From: Candidatus Micrarchaeota archaeon
Lineage (GTDB): Archaea; Micrarchaeota; Micrarchaeia; Anstonellales; Bilamarchaeaceae
Reading direction: 5' to 3'
Assembly: GCA_038046805.1 (NCBI GenBank)
Contig: JBBSVO010000003.1
Coordinates: forward strand, 147,120-211,119
Length of the DNA: 64,000 nucleotides
The number at the start of each line of letters is the position of its first letter. Positions within the stretch are counted from its first letter, which is position 1. Positions 9,350 to 59,103 of this stretch are shown here, piece by piece. The notes below the pieces were generated by a model. That model saw only the letters and a program-made list of their open reading frames with translations, had not been told where the DNA came from and did no database searches. Position numbers and translations under genes: made by a program.

Positions 9350-9466
9350 TGTCAAAAACCACTGGTTAGAGACCAGTGGCTTGTTTTTGACAGGCAGAGA
9401 TTCCACGACTGGGCCAGGTAATGATTATGTGACCATTAGTCACAGACTAGTGGAATCTCTGGATTT
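9350..9466. repeat. Dispersed palindromic repeat family B, full copy
   Basis: Hairpins TGTCAAAAAC..GTTTTTGACA and CAGAGATTCCAC..GTGGAATCTCTG; homologous to 50698-50928 and 33899-33941. Confidence 0.8.
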
Positions 9467-17517: not shown

Positions 17518-17583
17518 GTTATATCAAACCAACAAAGTTTTCCGGAGTTTTATCCGGTCTCTCGGCGAGGCTGGTTTGATATA

Positions 17584-17722
17584 TGTCAAGAACGACCTAT
17601 AAAACGGCAAACCGTTTTATGGTCCATTGAACGATTCGTCGTTCAATTGGACGTTTCGTTCTTGGGGATTTGAGAACCGAAAAGTTCTCAAAGTGCTCGT
17701 GATCGTTGCGACGATCGCGACA
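17584..17722. repeat. Branched palindromic element family A, copy 1
   Basis: TGTC..GACA-bounded; stem CAAGAACGA/TCGTTCTTG with internal hairpins; homologous to 50745-50858 with compensatory changes. Confidence 0.85.
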
Positions 17723-17835
17723 CTGTGAACCCGAAAAACATTTCGGGGTCGCTGTAAGCACAAAACGCGACGCAGATATTGCTGAGAACCAAGAACTCTG
17801 GACTGAAAACAGGAATATGGTGGTGCGGCCAGTAT

Positions 17836-20442
17836 ATGGAACTTAAAAAGATAAAAATCATAAAAAAACTTTACCGTTTCGAGGTAAGGAAAAGATACCA
17901 GCATATCTCCAGATTTAGAGTTAAACAAAAAAGTCCGATAGAACAAATTCGCGGCCAGATTTCGAAAATATTCGCAAAACCACATGATAAAGTTGCGGCC
18001 TCCAAAAGTCAAACGAAAGGCACGACTTCCGGGGGAGTAGAACCAAAGAATAACACATGGATAATGGTAGCAACTATTGCAATGGTACTTATACTTCTTC
18101 TGGTTGGAGGATTATATTTTTATGCTCAAAGCGCAAAGGCAGGGCAGATGTATTACACATCTCGACTCATACTCTCGCCTCAACTCAACACTACAATAGA
18201 AAATAGCGGGGTGATTACCGCTGGAGATAAAAAAGATAATACGAGTATAGGATACATCAGACTACGGTACAATACAGATGGTGTTCAAAATTTCACTATG
18301 AACTTCAAAACTTACGAGATGGGAATTCCTTCAGAAGTATTTATTCTATCCAGTCCGATGGATAAAGCCCAGACAACAAAATACGCAGACTTTAGGGCCA
18401 TATTGAAAAAGGAAATGACAAAGAAAAGAATAAGCGTAAACGAACTTGACCTGGAACAACTTGAAACAATTCCGAAAGGCGCGTTTCTACTGATACCTCA
18501 TGGAAGGATGCCACAAGAACTATTTGGAATTGAAAGCTCAATCGATATGAACAAACTAACAGAAAGAGGAGTGAACATCGTATATGTGGGTCTCCAATTT
18601 GACAAGATGATCCTAAAAAACGGACTTTTGGTTTCAACCCCGGAAAATGCATTGAAGAACGCAGGCGTTTCGTTTGATGAAAAAGAGGACTTGCTCACAA
18701 ATGGACTAAACCTTTATCAGCCCCTGTATGTTGCAAAAGGAACCTCTGGAGACTCGAACTCCATAATATATGGTTCAGTAAGTGCGATTCGGAGAAAGAA
18801 CGGAATGTTGATTTTTATCCCGCAAACGCTTGACGGAGGATGGAAACGAGATCCGGAAGCTGCTGCAAAGGATGTTGCGAAACTGCTTATTCAAACCGCA
18901 TGGGCAACCCCGGATAATCCAGAGGGCATAACTTATACCAAGGAATCTCTTGATAATGAAACCCACATAGAAGATTTCTTCACAAATATTTTCAATGGAA
19001 ATTCGAGACATGTAAAGATAGACCTTACTGGGAAAGATGTAAATGGAGACGATGTTGGGGAATTAAGAATAGCAGAAATAAAGAAGGAAGCTGCAGGTTC
19101 ATGGTATATCAGTGGTGGATTCACAGTAGCGCCAACTGAGATAACAAACGAAGAAGTTCCGATAATACTAACCTTAAAAGAAAAAACAGGGGTAGAAAAA
19201 TACCTGTATGTGGCCATAACAAAGAATGGCGGGCTGGTTGGAGAGAAAAAACTGCTCAAAACAGTGCCAATAAACATTCAGACAGAACTAACAGATTATC
19301 TTCCAATAAATCTGGATAGCGGGGATTATATTGCGAGTATAGAGGATGAAGCTGGTAATAGATATGCCCAAACATTCCTTCACGTGGTTTTTGTAGATGT
19401 TAAAAAACTCTATGATAAAGAGGAAAGACAGGTAATAAGATTCGCATTTGAGAAGGAAGGAACACCAGTAGTCATACGAAATGTTGAGGTTACAGTAAAA
19501 TCAAAGAAAGGAGATAGTTACGGAAAATACGAATTCAGCGACGTATCCCAAATATCAGTAGATGTGAGCAAAAATGTACCGGGCTCGGATAAGTTACCAT
19601 TCGGGGACTATGTCTTCAAATTCAAAATGGGTGAAATAGAAAAGGACGTTCCTGTTTCGTATGCCAGGGCTGCCACTATCTTCGAGGACCCGGTTTTCAT
19701 CGTAATTGGAGTAATGAGTGTTCTTATCCTTGGTATCGGGGTGTATTTTGCAAGAAAAGAAGAGGTAATGTATCAATTAGATGTCCCGGATTTCCCACCA
19801 ATAACAAAAACAAAGATTTCGATAACAACCCCGGAATTTATTTCTATTTTCGGCCAGGTAAATACAGATTATAGATGGAGATATACTCCGCTCAACACAA
19901 CCGAAGTAAAGAACGGTTTCAGAAAAATCATGAAAGAAGGGCGAACCGTGTATATATCGGATTACAACGTAGAGTATATACTCGGCAATCTTGTGAAAAA
20001 AGATGTAGTTAGGGAATCCATTGGATATTATTGTCCAACAGCATGGGAAGGGGAAAGCAAAAGAAGCTCCGGATATCTTTGTATTTTCAGAAAACTAAGA
20101 GATATATTTGTGAATAATGCTATACCATTCACACAACTTGGAGAGGAAATAGAATGCGATACAAAAATGGATATGATAGGGCAGGAAATGCATGTTCATA
20201 TTTTTGACAAGGATGGAGACGAAAAAAGAATGGAAACCCTTATTAGTAATGCTCTGAAAACAGCGCAGAAAGGGATATCCATGGTTATATTCAAAAACGA
20301 CGACGGAAAACGCGAGTTTCAGGATATTTTATCATCTTCATCCGCAGGACCAATAACTCTGAAGCTTGAAGTCGATGCAAAATCAGTTCTTCTTCTGACA
20401 ATAGACGAGTTTGAGAAGATGGTGCTGGAAATGAAAGGTTAA
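17836..20442 (+). CDS. Large membrane protein with two TM segments and a large beta-rich domain between them
   Basis: TM near N-terminus (IMVATIAMVLILLLVGGLYFY) and a second TM (VFIVIGVMSVLILGIGVYF). Confidence 0.75.
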   Translation: MELKKIKIIKKLYRFEVRKRYQHISRFRVKQKSPIEQIRGQISKIFAKPHDKVAASKSQTKGTTSGGVEPKNNTWIMVATIAMVLILLLVGGLYFYAQSAKAGQMYYTSRLILSPQLNTTIENSGVITAGDKKDNTSIGYIRLRYNTDGVQNFTMNFKTYEMGIPSEVFILSSPMDKAQTTKYADFRAILKKEMTKKRISVNELDLEQLETIPKGAFLLIPHGRMPQELFGIESSIDMNKLTERGVNIVYVGLQFDKMILKNGLLVSTPENALKNAGVSFDEKEDLLTNGLNLYQPLYVAKGTSGDSNSIIYGSVSAIRRKNGMLIFIPQTLDGGWKRDPEAAAKDVAKLLIQTAWATPDNPEGITYTKESLDNETHIEDFFTNIFNGNSRHVKIDLTGKDVNGDDVGELRIAEIKKEAAGSWYISGGFTVAPTEITNEEVPIILTLKEKTGVEKYLYVAITKNGGLVGEKKLLKTVPINIQTELTDYLPINLDSGDYIASIEDEAGNRYAQTFLHVVFVDVKKLYDKEERQVIRFAFEKEGTPVVIRNVEVTVKSKKGDSYGKYEFSDVSQISVDVSKNVPGSDKLPFGDYVFKFKMGEIEKDVPVSYARAATIFEDPVFIVIGVMSVLILGIGVYFARKEEVMYQLDVPDFPPITKTKISITTPEFISIFGQVNTDYRWRYTPLNTTEVKNGFRKIMKEGRTVYISDYNVEYILGNLVKKDVVRESIGYYCPTAWEGESKRSSGYLCIFRKLRDIFVNNAIPFTQLGEEIECDTKMDMIGQEMHVHIFDKDGDEKRMETLISNALKTAQKGISMVIFKNDDGKREFQDILSSSSAGPITLKLEVDAKSVLLLTIDEFEKMVLEMKG

Positions 20443-31338: not shown

Positions 31339-31473
31339 ATTAATCACCAAGTAATTGTTTTCGTTGAGAGTCTATTGCGGAAAAGATATATAAAGATATC
31401 CGATTGGCCAGAAGCTTTGGGCTTTTGGCCTTGGGCTTTGGGCAGTTACAGTTTTCAGTTCCGAGTTCCAAAT

Positions 31474-31562
31474 AGAACGACGCATCGTTCTTGAGCACTT
31501 CAAAAACGACGTCTCGTTTTTGAGGATTTTAGAACGGATCGCCGTTCTAAAAGTGCTCGCGA
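31474..31562. repeat. Branched palindromic element family A, variant copy upstream of cdc6
   Basis: AGAACGA-CGCA-TCGTTCT, GAGCACTT..AAGTGCTC enclosing two perfect hairpins, then GCGA; same module order as copies at 17584 and 50745. Confidence 0.75.
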
Positions 31563-31651
31563 AGGTTCTCTGCCCATTGCCCACAGCTCATTGCCAACTG
31601 CTAATAGCCAACCCATCACATTTTTATCTTTTACCTCTCTTAACCATTGCG

Positions 31652-33898: not shown

Positions 33899-33941
33899 AA
33901 ATCCAGAGATTCCACTGGTCCTTGACCTGTTGTTTTTGGCA
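33899..33941 (-). repeat. Repeat family B, internally deleted copy just downstream of tRNA-Ser
   Basis: Reverse complement TGCCAAAAACAACAGGTCAAGGACCAGTGGAATCTCTGGATTT joins the left and right ends of the 9350 copy at AGTGG. Confidence 0.7.
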
Positions 33942-33992
33942 CTCACAGGCATCGGATTAAAATCAAGTGCGATTTCATATTGAATTGATAAG

Positions 33993-34715
33993 ATGGAACT
34001 TCCCAGATTAGTCTCTAACCCGTGGTTCTTGACAAGGCCGTTTCTCCTGTTAACAGGATTTTTTTTATTATTTATTCTGTTGAACTTGCAGAGTTTCCTG
34101 GATAATGTCTGGTTTTATGCCTCTGGTAGCGCGATTGCAATCGCAATAAAAGGCCAGTGGTGGTTTGCTGCGCTTAATATTGCAATTTTTTTATCTCTGT
34201 TGTTATTCCTAAATAGAAAAAAAGCAAATTGGAAGACACACGGTCTGTTTTCCGCATTCGTAATTTCTTTATTCGTGGAAATGTATGGTGCGGCGTTGGC
34301 GATTTATTTTCTGGCAGGCGGCCAGGCATCGGTTCCCAAAGATACGGCACACGAGGTATTATTTAGTTTAAACTTTTTTGGCATTACCCTTGGGTTTGAT
34401 TTTTGGATGACCTTTGGAACAATAGTGATTACAACGGGAATCGCGATAATTGCCATTGGCTGGTACCAGCTATGGAAATCTAGGAAAAAACTATTTACCG
34501 AAGGATTTTACAGATACTCCAGGCATCCGCAGTATATCGGATTTTTGTACACGATCTGGGGCTGGATGATCGCCTGGCCAACTATAACAACATTAATTTT
34601 TACCCCGATACTGACTATTGCATATTTGTACGCAGCAAAAAAAGAGGAAGAACAGATTCTAAATGAGAATCAAGAATACGAATCTTATGCCAAAAAAACG
34701 CCATTTTTGATATAA
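33993..34715 (+). CDS. Isoprenylcysteine carboxyl methyltransferase (ICMT/PEMT) family membrane protein
   Basis: SLFVEMYG, LFTEGFYRYSRHPQYIG, KKEE, Y..YAKKTPFL. Confidence 0.85.
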   Translation: MELPRLVSNPWFLTRPFLLLTGFFLLFILLNLQSFLDNVWFYASGSAIAIAIKGQWWFAALNIAIFLSLLLFLNRKKANWKTHGLFSAFVISLFVEMYGAALAIYFLAGGQASVPKDTAHEVLFSLNFFGITLGFDFWMTFGTIVITTGIAIIAIGWYQLWKSRKKLFTEGFYRYSRHPQYIGFLYTIWGWMIAWPTITTLIFTPILTIAYLYAAKKEEEQILNENQEYESYAKKTPFLI

Positions 34716-39378: not shown

Positions 39379-40182
39379 ATGGCTGAGAAACCTGAAGAAA
39401 AAAAGAATGAAACGAAAATTGAGGAAACAACCCAACCACAGATTCCAATTCACTTTTACGTGATGCTCGGACTTTTGGTAGTTGTGCTTGCGTTCAACCA
39501 GTTTCAGATAATGGGACTTAGCTCGCAGATTGCTGCTCTTGGCAGTGTAGCTGCATCAACAGGCGGAAGCGCGTCTGGAGGTTCGTCTTCATCCGGAAGC
39601 AGTTCAAGCGGAACGGGTTCATCTGCTGAACTAAGCGCAGAGCAGGTTTGGGAGAAGATAAAGCCAAGCGGAGTCCCTCCGGTTTACGGAAAGGAGCTTG
39701 GGGTAAACTATGATGACACGGTTGGCGCGCTTGGAAAGCTCGCTGCACTTGATGATAGCATTACATATAGCAGCCTTAATGAAAAGGCAAAAACAAGATA
39801 CCTGAAAATCGGGTTTGCAATTGCATGTGAATACTGCTGTGGCGCAAAGTCGCTCATATTCTCAAATGGAGAAAAGGCATGTGGATGCCAGCACTCATAT
39901 GCAATGAGAGGAATTGCCAAGTATATCCTGAAGAACTATCCTGAAGAATTCACGGATGACCAGATAGTGGAGGAACTCGCCAAATGGAAGATGACATACT
40001 TCCCGAAGCAGCACATATCTAAGGCAATGGAATTCATGAAAGCAGGAATGCCGCTTAACGCGATGGATCTTGCCAGCCAGAAATACCGTGGATTCAAGGC
40101 ATCAACAGCAAGCTCTTCTGGTAGCGGAGCAGCAACAGGTAGTGGGGCATCAAGCCTTCCGAACATGGTTGGGGGATGCTAA
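39379..40182 (+). CDS. Membrane-anchored Cys-motif protein (CEYCC...CGCQH) ending LPNMVGGC
   Basis: N-terminal TM, Ser/Gly linkers, putative metal-binding Cys cluster; GAGGTG RBS. Confidence 0.8.
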   Translation: MAEKPEEKKNETKIEETTQPQIPIHFYVMLGLLVVVLAFNQFQIMGLSSQIAALGSVAASTGGSASGGSSSSGSSSSGTGSSAELSAEQVWEKIKPSGVPPVYGKELGVNYDDTVGALGKLAALDDSITYSSLNEKAKTRYLKIGFAIACEYCCGAKSLIFSNGEKACGCQHSYAMRGIAKYILKNYPEEFTDDQIVEELAKWKMTYFPKQHISKAMEFMKAGMPLNAMDLASQKYRGFKASTASSSGSGAATGSGASSLPNMVGGC

Positions 40183-40227
40183 GCTTGTTTCACGTTTTGA
40201 GTCTAGTGTCTAGGCGATGGTGAAATT

Positions 40228-40373: not shown

Positions 40374-40610
40374 ATGGCAGTTGACAAGATGATGTTGCTG
40401 ACAATAATCGTCGGCGTATTGGTCGTAGTGGCATTGTTCCAGGCACTTCAGCTTGGGAAGACATCTGGAGAACTATCTGCAAAGAAGCTTGCAGTCGGTT
40501 CGGCCAGCAGCTCGGGTGGGGCATCAGCAGCACCTTCTTCAGGTTCCGGGGCAGGCAGTGCTTCAGGCGCAGGAGTTGCAAGTCTTCCAAGCATGGTTGG
40601 AGGATGCTAA
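40374..40610 (+). CDS. Small membrane-anchored protein ending LPSMVGGC
   Basis: One TM, Ser/Gly/Ala linker, same tail as 39379..40182. Confidence 0.8.
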   Translation: MAVDKMMLLTIIVGVLVVVALFQALQLGKTSGELSAKKLAVGSASSSGGASAAPSSGSGAGSASGAGVASLPSMVGGC

Positions 40611-40682
40611 ATTTCTTCTTTTTTTTATTTTTTATTTAATTTATCCGTACAAAGCAACAACAAGTAAGTGTATGGTGAATAT

Positions 40683-50697: not shown

Positions 50698-50928
50698 TGT
50701 CAAAAACCACCAGTTAGAGACCTGGCTTGTTTATTTTTGACAGATGTCAAGAACGACCGATAAAACTTATCGAAGTTTTATGGTCCATAAATCGATGCGT
50801 CGATTTATCGGACGATTCGTTCTTGAGCATGTTCGTGACCGATGCGTCGGTCGCGACATAGATCTTCCCCATAGAACTGGTGTTTCTTGGGTGACCACCA
50901 GTTACAAACTGGTGGAATATCTAGATTT
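50698..50928. repeat. Repeat family B copy interrupted by a family A element
   Basis: Left arm TGTCAAAAACCACCAGTTAGAGACC..TTTTTGACAG and right arm GTGACCACCAGTTACAAACTGGTGGAATATCTAGATTT align to 9350-9466. Confidence 0.75.
50745..50858. repeat. Branched palindromic element family A, copy 2
   Basis: Aligns end-to-end with 17584-17722, with compensatory stem changes and a shorter third arm. Confidence 0.85.
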
Positions 50929-52348: not shown

Positions 52349-52426
52349 GTTACAACCACTAAACTATTTAAATATTGTGGTTATAACCTACAACCACAGG
52401 ATAGATTTGAAAATGTGGTTATAACC
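52349..52426. promoter_or_regulatory. Putative operator repeats upstream of Fic gene
   Basis: TGTGGTTATAACC twice (palindromic core GGTTATAACC) plus TACAACCAC half-sites around a TATTTAAATA box. Confidence 0.6.
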
Positions 52427-57325: not shown

Positions 57326-57416
57326 AAACTTATCATACATTTTATATGTTAAATGTATGCCTAAAAATTACGTCTGAAAAACTTATCATACATTTTATAA
57401 CATAAAAGTAAGATAA
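57326..57416. promoter_or_regulatory. 21-bp direct repeats, each with a downstream inverted arm, upstream of Fic gene
   Basis: AAACTTATCATACATTTTATA at 57326 and 57379. Confidence 0.65.
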
Positions 57417-57417
57417 C

Positions 57418-59025
57418 TCATTGGCGACCAGCACAATTGAGATTGTAAATATCCATCCCAAACTCTTTGTTCTTCTCCAGTCTCCTTAGCAATTCATCCA
57501 TTACAATCTTTTTTACTTCCATGTATTTCTCCCGCCCAACCTCAACATTGGCAATAGCATACCGTTTGCTCTTCGTATTGAAACAAAACATGCAATTATC
57601 CAGATTCTCGGAATTATGGCAGAACATTGAGTTCGCGCAATTATTGCACCCGTTCATTTCTAGGCACGCAGTCATATTGGTGCAACCATGGCACCTTATG
57701 CAAAATTTTGAATGAACCGCACGCTGGCAACCAAATACGTTTTCCGAGGCAACTGCCATATTGCAATATGCGCAGTTTTTCGAATGCGCGCAATCCTCAA
57801 CCTGATAGCTGTTCGCAACGCAATAGGTGACATGAGACTCGATATTATTGACCGAATTTCCCTCGGTAACATTAGTCGGGAAAAAGGCGACGCCGGCAAG
57901 TTTTGCGGCAAGCTGGCCAAGCCCTAGTGTTTCGCCTTCCTTAAGCTCCATCTTCATTCTGGAAGCATGCTCGGATTCATGGCAGGAGATAACCCTGTCT
58001 TTTGGCACTGAACCGAAAAACGTAAATGAAGGAGAGAACCAGACCGTATTTCCAAACGAAGTTGGATGTGATTTAACTGAGTTTATTCCATGAGTAAGAA
58101 ACTTCTGGTTTTCATTTAGTCCGCCGATTTCTTTTCCGAATATTACCCTGCACGTGTCATGGAACGCAGTGTCGAGTTTGTTGAAGTCTTGTTCCGGCAG
58201 TTTGAACGCAAATTTCGGCATAACTGGAGCTTTTGGCATTCCGGGAATTACGAACGGCGGATAGAACCTTTTGTGTTTCTCGATATATTCACGAATCTCC
58301 ACAATGAGCTTGTCCTTTAATTGCAAATATCGTTCTCTCGGCAATTCGAGATTCCCGATGCAGTATCGCTTTCCCTTTTGGTTAAATGAAAACATAAGGT
58401 GCGCGCAATCAAAATTGTAATAACTGCAGTAAACATCAGATACCGACGCGGAAAAATACGATTCAAAGGCGCGGATAAGCGTTCCTTCAATCACGTGTAT
58501 TGCATATTTACTGCTCGGGGAATATGCGCATCCGAATGTGTATTCCGCCCCGTCCCGCATGTAAGAAGAATACGCCACATATTTTGAGCCGTGAATGTTG
58601 TGCGAATTCTTTACGCAGAAACTGTCAACGCAATTGTCGCTGATTTCGATTTGTTCCGAACGTCCGAATTTCTTGTTTCCAGTATAAATTACTCTTTCCT
58701 GTATCGCCTCAACAATGGAATCAACGTCCTTTATTTCATTAATTCCGAGAGGATTGAACGGCGCACCGTTCAAATTTTGAAAAAACAGTGGTTTTTTCAA
58801 CGGCTCGAATTTTTTGTTCCAGTCAATCTCGTCCTGTGAAATAAATTTTGCGGTTTCAAGATAGCTCGAACTGGAGACCATAACTGGTTTTCCTGATACT
58901 GAGGATGTTTTTTGCCCAAGCGGAACCTGGTAACTGAGCAGCCAATCCTTTACTTCATCCATCTCCACGTTGCACTCACCCAAAAGAAGCTTGTACGTGA
59001 ATTTGAATGCCTGATTGATGTCCAT
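57418..59025 (-). CDS. Cys-rich internally duplicated repeat protein carrying a 17-aa palindrome-derived insertion
   Basis: Paralog of 27336..28940 (EIKDVDSI vs EVKDIDSI; CFNTKSKRYAIANVEVG vs CFNTRNKRYAIGNVEVG). Confidence 0.75.
   Translation of the reverse strand: MDINQAFKFTYKLLLGECNVEMDEVKDWLLSYQVPLGQKTSSVSGKPVMVSSSSYLETAKFISQDEIDWNKKFEPLKKPLFFQNLNGAPFNPLGINEIKDVDSIVEAIQERVIYTGNKKFGRSEQIEISDNCVDSFCVKNSHNIHGSKYVAYSSYMRDGAEYTFGCAYSPSSKYAIHVIEGTLIRAFESYFSASVSDVYCSYYNFDCAHLMFSFNQKGKRYCIGNLELPRERYLQLKDKLIVEIREYIEKHKRFYPPFVIPGMPKAPVMPKFAFKLPEQDFNKLDTAFHDTCRVIFGKEIGGLNENQKFLTHGINSVKSHPTSFGNTVWFSPSFTFFGSVPKDRVISCHESEHASRMKMELKEGETLGLGQLAAKLAGVAFFPTNVTEGNSVNNIESHVTYCVANSYQVEDCAHSKNCAYCNMAVASENVFGCQRAVHSKFCIRCHGCTNMTACLEMNGCNNCANSMFCHNSENLDNCMFCFNTKSKRYAIANVEVGREKYMEVKKIVMDELLRRLEKNKEFGMDIYNLNCAGRQ
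58747..58800. repeat. In-frame double-hairpin insertion related to family A
   Basis: TTGAACGG-CGCA-CCGTTCAA and TTGAAAAAAC-AGTG-GTTTTTTCAA; absent in the paralog. Confidence 0.7.
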
Positions 59026-59063
59026 GAATTGATTATGTATTACATTATATTTTAATTCTAACA

Positions 59064-59103
59064 ATCAAAAATTGCACAAAATACGAATATTTTATAAAGA
59101 AAT
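59064..59103 (+). promoter_or_regulatory. Conserved promoter/operator upstream of tandem Lrp gene (copy 2)
   Basis: ATCAAAAATTGCACAAAATACGAATATTTTATAAAGAAAT matches 2526-2565. Confidence 0.55.

Follow-up and report, generated by a model that had tools for sequence, protein, structure and literature searches.

Nested Mini-Elements in the Window

The sequence at positions 17584–17722 of the window (the whole 64,000-nucleotide stretch of DNA that was analyzed) is a nested composite and not one element, with three mini-elements inside a fourth repeat. These mini-elements and their relatives in Micrarchaeota are real, mobile and apparently undescribed in print. The best explanation for them, in which we have somewhat better than even confidence, is that they are non-autonomous and move as single strands through an HUH/Y1 enzyme acting in trans, our guess being a TnpA of the IS200 type. 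The window belongs to a small groundwater archaeon, whose 1.2-Mb genome is one of 16 contigs that is 86% complete (G000), and it was compared with a congeneric genome (G001) and with individual loci, which are given L-numbers (e.g., L001).

The first composite, A1 (17584–17722, + strand), consists of an A core, a C insert and half of a D insert, and the entire block is absent at the orthologous site in G001. The A core begins with its left end TGTC and the 5' arm of hairpin 1 (17584–17595, +), and after the GA of that arm there is an inserted C element of 56 bp (17596–17651, +) with the structure CC..hairpin-GGTCC-hairpin..GGA, defined by 25 unique C copies. The loop and 3' arm of hairpin 1 follow (17652–17663, +), and a perfect hairpin is restored when C is removed. 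Comparison with full D copies (window 31498–31553, G000 C4:105383 and L003) identified 17664–17693 (+) as the right half of a D element, comprising its spacer and second hairpin; a deletion between two 3' arms of similar sequence most likely removed the left half. The A core is then completed by the right half of its spacer, hairpin 2 with one T-G pair, and the right end GACA (17694–17722, +). Uninterrupted 58-bp A cores were found at G000 C3:116396, C3:134898, C4:86412, C4:154491 and C6:75128. The repeat that A invaded, host E, spans 17520–17757 with no strand assigned, its loose ends carrying the flanks of its A-free copy at G000 C7:17043–17150. Directly downstream of A1 is an ORF of 874 residues (17818–20442, +) that had no Pfam match and is conserved in G001, with 89% DNA identity across the compared part.

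Composite A2 (50745–50858, +) has an intact A core with a C element in the loop of hairpin 1 (50757–50812, +), the same position as in A1. It sits between the two halves of a PATE-like host repeat, B (50698–50928, +). A copy of B without an A insert, in effect an empty host, is present at 9350–9466 (+), others are at G000 C7:47954–48119 and on contigs C11, C9 and C2, and a divergent copy adjoins tRNA-Ser (33899–34034, −). By eye, the end hairpins of host B resemble those around tnpA in L027 and L162, and for this reason B is probably derived, without a gene of its own, from ends of the IS200/IS605 type. Composite A3 (31473–31562, +), between a PRC-barrel gene and cdc6, has a decayed A core with a full 56-bp D element inserted at CA|TG of the A spacer (31498–31553, +); in G001 the same interval holds a different nested composite. 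Short 7-mer tandem tracts in inverted arrangement flank A3 upstream of cdc6 (31406–31470 and 31563–31615), and similar tracts occur elsewhere in the genome.

The original prediction had treated these three stretches as variants of a single branched palindrome under selection for a multi-way junction. The coordinates and sequences quoted for them were correct when re-read in the window, the double (compensatory) changes it described were present, and the three stretches folded far more strongly than dinucleotide shuffles on both strands (z = −6.4 to −9.3 as DNA, −5.4 to −7.4 as RNA). An end-to-end alignment of the two main copies fails, however, since their lengths differ (139 versus 114 nt) through an extra half-module at 17664–17693. 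The third copy is indeed related to A, but it lacks the left TGTC and most of hairpin 2 and holds a full D module. Selection on one element for a junction was not supported, as the two-hairpin elements each also occur alone. What looks like a junction results from the insertion of independent two-hairpin elements into each other.

Nesting also occurs in reverse, with A inside the spacer of C (G000 C4:86412 and in G001), and two further element families occupy the A spacer in other genomes. In addition, a related two-hairpin unit forms an in-frame insertion of 51 nt (17 residues) at 58751–58801, with limits uncertain by about 2 bases and no strand assigned, in the gene at 57418–59064 (−), a member of a large paralogous protein family. 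This insert is absent from paralogues L364 and L369 and is the same in the G001 paralogue L366, and the G001 orthologue L363 has a different insert, of 14 residues, at that site.

Several other repeats were noted. At L260 754–781, a single-hairpin TGTC..GACA unit with mismatched outer arms lies inside an IS200-like hairpin host; it resembles an A element reduced to one hairpin by a deletion between the two. A tandem 57-bp two-hairpin repeat is present at two contig ends (G000 C7:137174–137237 and C8:1–110), copies that could come from rolling amplification. Other short two-copy repeats of the window are at 40151–40189 and 40579–40617, bracketing a 126-codon ORF, and at 52351–52426 and 57326–57410, the kinds listed being a 38-bp tandem pair and a 32-bp pair.

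Element Families and Arm Pairing

The elements are 58 bp (A), 56 bp (C), 58–59 bp (C') and 54–56 bp (D) in length, and looser relatives also exist. Each is made of two 20–24-bp hairpins of opposite loop polarity with a short spacer between them. The order in A is TGTC, hairpin, a GA-N-CATG-N-TC spacer, hairpin and GACA; C has a GGTCC spacer and also occurs alone. The loop of the 5' hairpin is mostly CGNN and that of the 3' hairpin NNCG, with an A-T closing pair, and an element therefore reads alike from either end. The UNCG-type TTCG and TGCG loops of the original prediction are thus confined to the 3' hairpin of each element, while the 5' hairpin carries the reverse complement, CGNN. This polarity is the opposite of what is expected for UNCG tetraloops in one RNA.

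Pairing was counted with arm positions left free, with the caveat that the patterns used to retrieve the loci had set part of the arm sequence (GAACG in one hairpin of A, AT and CG in C) and that related copies are not independent. Watson-Crick stem pairs accounted for 399 of 400 pairs in C (25 unique copies with 27 different arms) and for 733 of 752 in A (47 copies), compared with 242/400 and 442/752 (59–60%) when arms were paired across hairpins as a control. The covariation alignment of C held 20 of the 25 unique copies, related copies among them not being independent; all 360 cells were paired, with no one-sided change and no G-U, double changes were found at 13 of 18 pairs, and none of 500 shuffles matched this. 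Arm pairing is thus kept while the arm sequence drifts.

Arms are shuffled between copies, and within G001 all four pairings of four arms were found (a four-arm cycle). Identical arms within a doublet were not seen in any of the 47 A or 25 C copies. The two arms of A differed at 3.36 of 8 positions versus 2.69 under random pairing, a difference whose significance is inflated by kin; such a difference would prevent the two hairpins from merging into a single long stem. C had no excess arm difference over random pairing, and the link between its two arms across copies was weak (Mantel r 0.16, p 0.09). Kissing loops were considered and rejected, as only the CG of the loops is complementary and no covariation was seen.

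Distribution and Mobility

Perfect 20-bp CG-N6-CG palindromes numbered 71 in G000 and 0, 1 and 0 in three codon-shuffled controls. Of these units 64 were outside ORFs of at least 100 codons, although such ORFs make up 87% of G000. The further copies that the original prediction would lead one to expect were numerous in G000 and its relatives. The full C pattern was found at 14 loci in the species-wide genome collection, each of them titled Candidatus Micrarchaeota. Across the phylum the A pattern was found in 17 of 301 genomes, all within the family of the window, and in none of 236 others sampled; within that family a looser A-end pattern matched 31 of 99 genomes (reversed control, 0) and the C pattern 19 of 99. 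Five near-identical repeats carrying A in G039, and 14 matches in G099, indicate that host repeats can multiply together with their passenger elements. Viral contigs gave 25 pattern matches, among which there were no perfect palindromes and no true copies. No account of such repeats in Micrarchaeota was found in a literature search that covered few subscription journals.

Empty sites were found in a relative, as would be expected of a mobile element. The conserved flanks of the first composite are 286 bp apart in the window and 28 bp apart in G001, and the intervals of A2 and A3 carry different composites in G001. To measure turnover we began with 24 given G001 loci, 19 of which had an A or C pattern match and 14 of which had orthologous flanks on both sides. 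At none of these 14 sites was an insertion common to G001 and G000; two that were initially scored positive hold different elements in the two genomes. Clean empty sites were identified for A at L251 and for C at L071 (empty site G000 C6:216001), and A is present in the IS200 leader of L001 and absent from its homologues L020 and L021; none of these showed a multi-base duplication. Target duplications of 2 or more bases were absent, and an overlap of 1 bp is possible for C. The elements are therefore multi-copy, gained and lost between close relatives, and inserted without multi-base duplication.

A joint between 17582 and 17728 in two DNA runs was rejected as an empty allele of A1, as it is the paralogue of host E on contig C7. 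In another study, one contig runs through A1 with no change. The assembled contigs of sequencing runs showed no circle junction, and one RNA run had no piece over A1 among the pieces listed, which says nothing either way.

Target Sites

The left flank of C is GA in 23 of 25 copies (background 0.066), and all 25 have a terminal A, in each case on the strand that reads GGTCC. At A junctions there is an A on one strand in 44 of 45 cases (background 0.49) and GA in 27 of 45 (background 0.13). The cut could fall after or before the junction A (A| or |A). Rebuilt empty sites lay within stems in 43 of 69 cases versus 263 of 1500 non-coding GA sites, and the median folding energy was −9.2 versus −4.0 kcal/mol, the control sites being from G000 only. 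Inserts recur in IS200/IS605 end hairpins from different genomes (L001, L148, L214, L029, L031 and L166) and are also found in other hairpins and in tRNA introns. Survival in neutral DNA adds to the hairpin bias, but insertion at exactly the same positions again and again speaks for targeting. D breaks the A rule, its terminal base being G whichever strand is read, and the targets of C' (TA, AA, TA and GA) are not predicted by its spacer.

Several tRNA genes have long, hairpin-rich introns, a number of which carry elements (G000 C3:5357–5512, C3:95158–95308, C3:116340–116500, C6:37835–38066 and C8:6534–6723); ARAGORN reported only 10 tRNAs in G000. That the elements are themselves archaeal introns of the bulge-helix-bulge kind was rejected because copies tend to lie outside coding DNA and the single coding insert examined leaves the reading frame intact.

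Predicted Dumbbell Geometry and a Proposed Mechanism

The ends of A, C and C', as fixed from empty sites, are complementary to the spacer of the element itself, and an excised single-strand circle would therefore be a dumbbell. When circles were folded as single strands, all 47 A and all 25 C copies paired both ends with the center of the spacer, a count that is partly built in because ends and linkers were specified in the search patterns. More informative is that the dumbbell rule holds for three linkers unrelated to one another (A, C and C'). The energy of the dumbbell is lowest at the true left end and rises when that end is shifted by 1–3 bases. Two single bulged bases of the dumbbell vary freely, and C' behaves alike with a different linker. 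D and two looser families fit the rule less well.

Based on these observations, we propose that an HUH/Y1 enzyme supplied in trans would bind the hairpins of an element moving as a single strand and cut at (G)A sites. A circle would then be released whose end-to-end junction pairs with the spacer, giving a dumbbell with single bulged bases, and the same enzyme would nick a hairpin-containing target at (G)A and join the circle in. In C, base pairing of the spacer with each of the two GA sites is possible, which recalls the guide in IS608 and REP systems. The original prediction had suggested a non-autonomous element mobilized in trans, which these data support; we infer its HUH mechanism, that is, single-strand excision and insertion, by analogy with TnpA-REP (PMC3333891, PMC8266576). 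As described in those sources, the dinucleotide cut sites of TnpA-REP flank a hairpin on each side and the release of single-strand circles has been proposed (PMC3333891), and a changed REP guide redirects cleavage to GA (PMC8266576). The symmetry of A counts against an HUH/Y1 enzyme.

This is because IS200/IS605 transposition is strand-specific. A narrower version of the proposal, which we consider less likely than not, is that the elements are hyperparasites of IS200/IS605 elements: self-guided dumbbells of 55–59 nt that would borrow TnpA and land in the hairpins that TnpA binds, including each other. If it is true, they would count as some of the smallest transposition substrates that guide themselves, would provide archaea with a way to REPIN-like repeats that needs no RAYT, and would give a testable answer to how the SMR-A repeats discussed below move.

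Search for the Mobilizing Enzyme

IS200 TnpA acting in trans is our best guess for the mobilizer, one to which we give slightly more than an even chance. The guess falls on it since no other type of transposase turned up in the genomes tested, in searches covering the Y1, IS110 and serine-resolvase families. No Y1 gene is present in the window, in agreement with the original prediction that it holds no transposase; a profile built from 14 Y1 proteins identified one in G000, an IS200-like gene with its own ends about 12 kb before the window, which has been invaded twice. The same prediction had proposed looking for a RAYT- or IS200-type HUH gene flanked by the element. By eye, none of 37 Y1-transposase loci, several of them cut by contig ends, was natively bounded by A, C or D hairpins, and Y1 loci with visible ends had GC-rich end hairpins of their own, unrelated to those families. 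Y1 genes were found in 25 of 99 genomes of the family, and they co-occurred modestly with A (13 genomes with both, 18 with A only, 12 with Y1 only and 56 with neither; OR 3.4, p 0.013 before allowing for kinship). Thus 18 of 31 A-positive genomes had no Y1 match, kin among them not being independent.

Many IS200 tnpA genes of Micrarchaeota have a conserved hairpin, GTAGC...GCTAC, in the leader ahead of their start codon (L001 1893–1965; homologues L020, L021, L027, L148–L154, L157, L162 and L214), with a possible role in translational control.

Among 413 ORFs near units at 164 loci, the recurrent neighbors were TnpA, TnpB, one family without a Pfam match, and housekeeping or other genes, so that TnpA and TnpB were the only mobile-element genes among them. 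TnpB was present in five of five element-rich genomes. A protein without a Pfam match adjoins elements in two genomes (L055 592–1347 and L140 2624–3452) and appears interrupted in G001. A metagenome scan for non-standard right ends returned 62 loci, 48 of them chance-like and 14 with at most one stem mismatch; the eight examined contained no transposase. By eye, the ORFs around 16 hairpin-rich regions included no new transposase, and a self-comparison of G000 brought out no multi-copy transposase repeat of IS size. The IS110 and serine-resolvase families were found in none of the five element-rich genomes, which are incomplete, and a search for DUF1424 Rep proteins had no match in any genome, controls included, and so carries no information.

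Tyrosine recombinases were present in four of the five element-rich genomes. Three related proteins of this kind in G000, of 400 residues and with a C-terminal zinc-ribbon-like motif (C4:78368, C6:167486 and C11:6868), have relatives in G039.

Alternative Explanations

An undescribed structured ncRNA with a multi-way junction would fit the strong RNA folds and the TTCG and TGCG loops. This reading is already largely refuted and retains hardly any probability; perfect covariation alone does not establish an RNA gene. Compared with Rfam, the window gave one tRNA only, and the three element loci had no match at E ≤ 1. The C alignment had neither G-U nor one-sided changes, and the A mispairs were G-T in 6 and A-C in 10 cases, with arbitrary orientation. 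Furthermore, the loops are closed by an A-T pair and their polarity is reversed on the 5' hairpin, the two strands fold in the same way, copies are not conserved in position, and the arms of the junction are separate insertions. Some copies do lie in tRNA introns and one in an mRNA leader, and these are therefore transcribed passively. Nesting, pairing, the target pattern and the dumbbell instead favor the mobility of single-stranded DNA. Selection on a fold need not be the source of perfect covariation either, since template switching during replication can, as described in PMC8794818, create and maintain perfect stems, and the passenger inserts in the related IS ends L029 and L031 differ by double changes in place. 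We consider such repair of palindromes improbable as the origin of the covariation. The complete turnover between congeners means that copies are young, and near-perfect stems need no repair; nor would template switching explain the fixed length, the conserved linkers, the loop polarity or the arm difference of A. It may act alongside single-strand movement of the mini-elements.

If mobility is accepted, the enzyme could be of another kind. It is possible, though we think it rather unlikely, that the same mini-elements are moved by a different single-strand enzyme, such as the rolling-circle Rep of an unsampled plasmid or virus, a nuclease-ligase of the host, or a tyrosine recombinase working on the dumbbell once it has folded. 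None of the 37 Y1 genes has these ends, and many element-rich genomes are without a Y1 match. Nicking before A is typical of rolling-circle Reps, a register that the ambiguous junction permits; a viral source is disfavored by the viral contigs lacking true copies. Tyrosine recombinases act on folded single strands in the integron and CTX-phage systems, and the dumbbell would present two inverted half-sites around a 4–5-bp core. However, the nine tyrosine recombinase loci examined were not bounded by doublets, several being adjacent to tRNA genes, and targets share only (G)A with the junction and have no core homology. Double-stranded movement of classical MITEs by a DDE transposase, through short terminal inverted repeats and with a 1-bp (A) duplication for C, is very unlikely in our view. 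Both families do have inverted ends (TGTC..GACA in A, CCRAT..ATYGG in C), and C can be read as A-[CC..GG]-A. Symmetric ends, however, would not impose a terminal A on the same strand relative to the spacer in 25 of 25 C copies, A-family insertions are blunt, and the recognition of terminal repeats does not need hairpin pairing to be kept despite sequence drift. Single-strand movement by an HUH/Y1 enzyme in trans thus remains the reading that we prefer.

Comparison with Known Systems

The present analysis contributes three element families (C, C' and D), their nesting, a rule for target sites and the predicted dumbbell. The inserts account for unusual tRNA introns, disrupted IS ends and protein loops added in frame in Micrarchaeota genomes. 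Boundaries, target rule and pairing are sufficiently defined for tests with short oligonucleotides and one small protein. If a self-guided dumbbell of 56 nt is indeed moved by TnpA or by some other HUH enzyme, this would show an origin of REP-like repeats in archaea and would provide a minimal programmable substrate for single-strand insertion.

The elements share with the REP doublets, REPINs and BIMEs mobilized by RAYT, as described in PMC3116915, PMC3333891 and PMC8266576, a mobile unit of two inverted short palindromes, compensatory changes, a low-specificity dinucleotide cut, a proposed single-strand circle and module shuffling. They are likewise multi-copy, mostly extragenic inverted doublets. 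Unlike REPINs, they have no GTAG tag, A having a partly paired TGTC and C, C' and D having no tag; no RAYT gene flanked by the repeats was found in these incomplete genomes, and the doublet is not one long hairpin. For Archaea, the available text of PMC6006769 reports only subclass 1.1 of the Y1 family, the IS200 type, and the account of archaeal REPs in PMC12306157 predicts them by a generic scan and, in its available part, mentions neither DPANN nor RAYT. CGTC-tagged REPs, according to PMC3733652, often have TGTC as their terminal motif, with 8–9-bp stems and 4–5-nt loops, and are mostly heterodimers for which no dedicated transposase was found, all in likeness to the present elements. That account places them in five bacterial phyla and gives them an unpaired tag and a CCA tail, whereas here TGTC is partly in the stem and C, C' and D are untagged.

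PATEs, the gene-less derivatives of IS200/IS605 elements described in PMC3119063, also lack target duplication and have hairpins near their ends, and host B looks like one. A, C and D differ from PATEs in that their hairpins are unrelated to the IS200/IS605 ends seen, their termini are inverted and they are themselves invaders of PATEs. In behavior, the present units appear most like SMR-A of Haloquadratum walsbyi (HqIRS42, 43 and 55). As described in PMC3119063, SMR-A are archaeal and gene-less, with inverted ends and no target duplication, as are our units; both prefer palindromes of PATEs or IS605-type elements, near-terminal ones in the case of SMR-A, and in both the mobilizer is unknown. 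SMR-A are about 110 bp in that description, compared with 54–59 bp for the units here and 111–139 bp for their composites, and what sets the present units apart from SMR-A as there described is that they are built of two covarying hairpins and insert into one another at fixed points.
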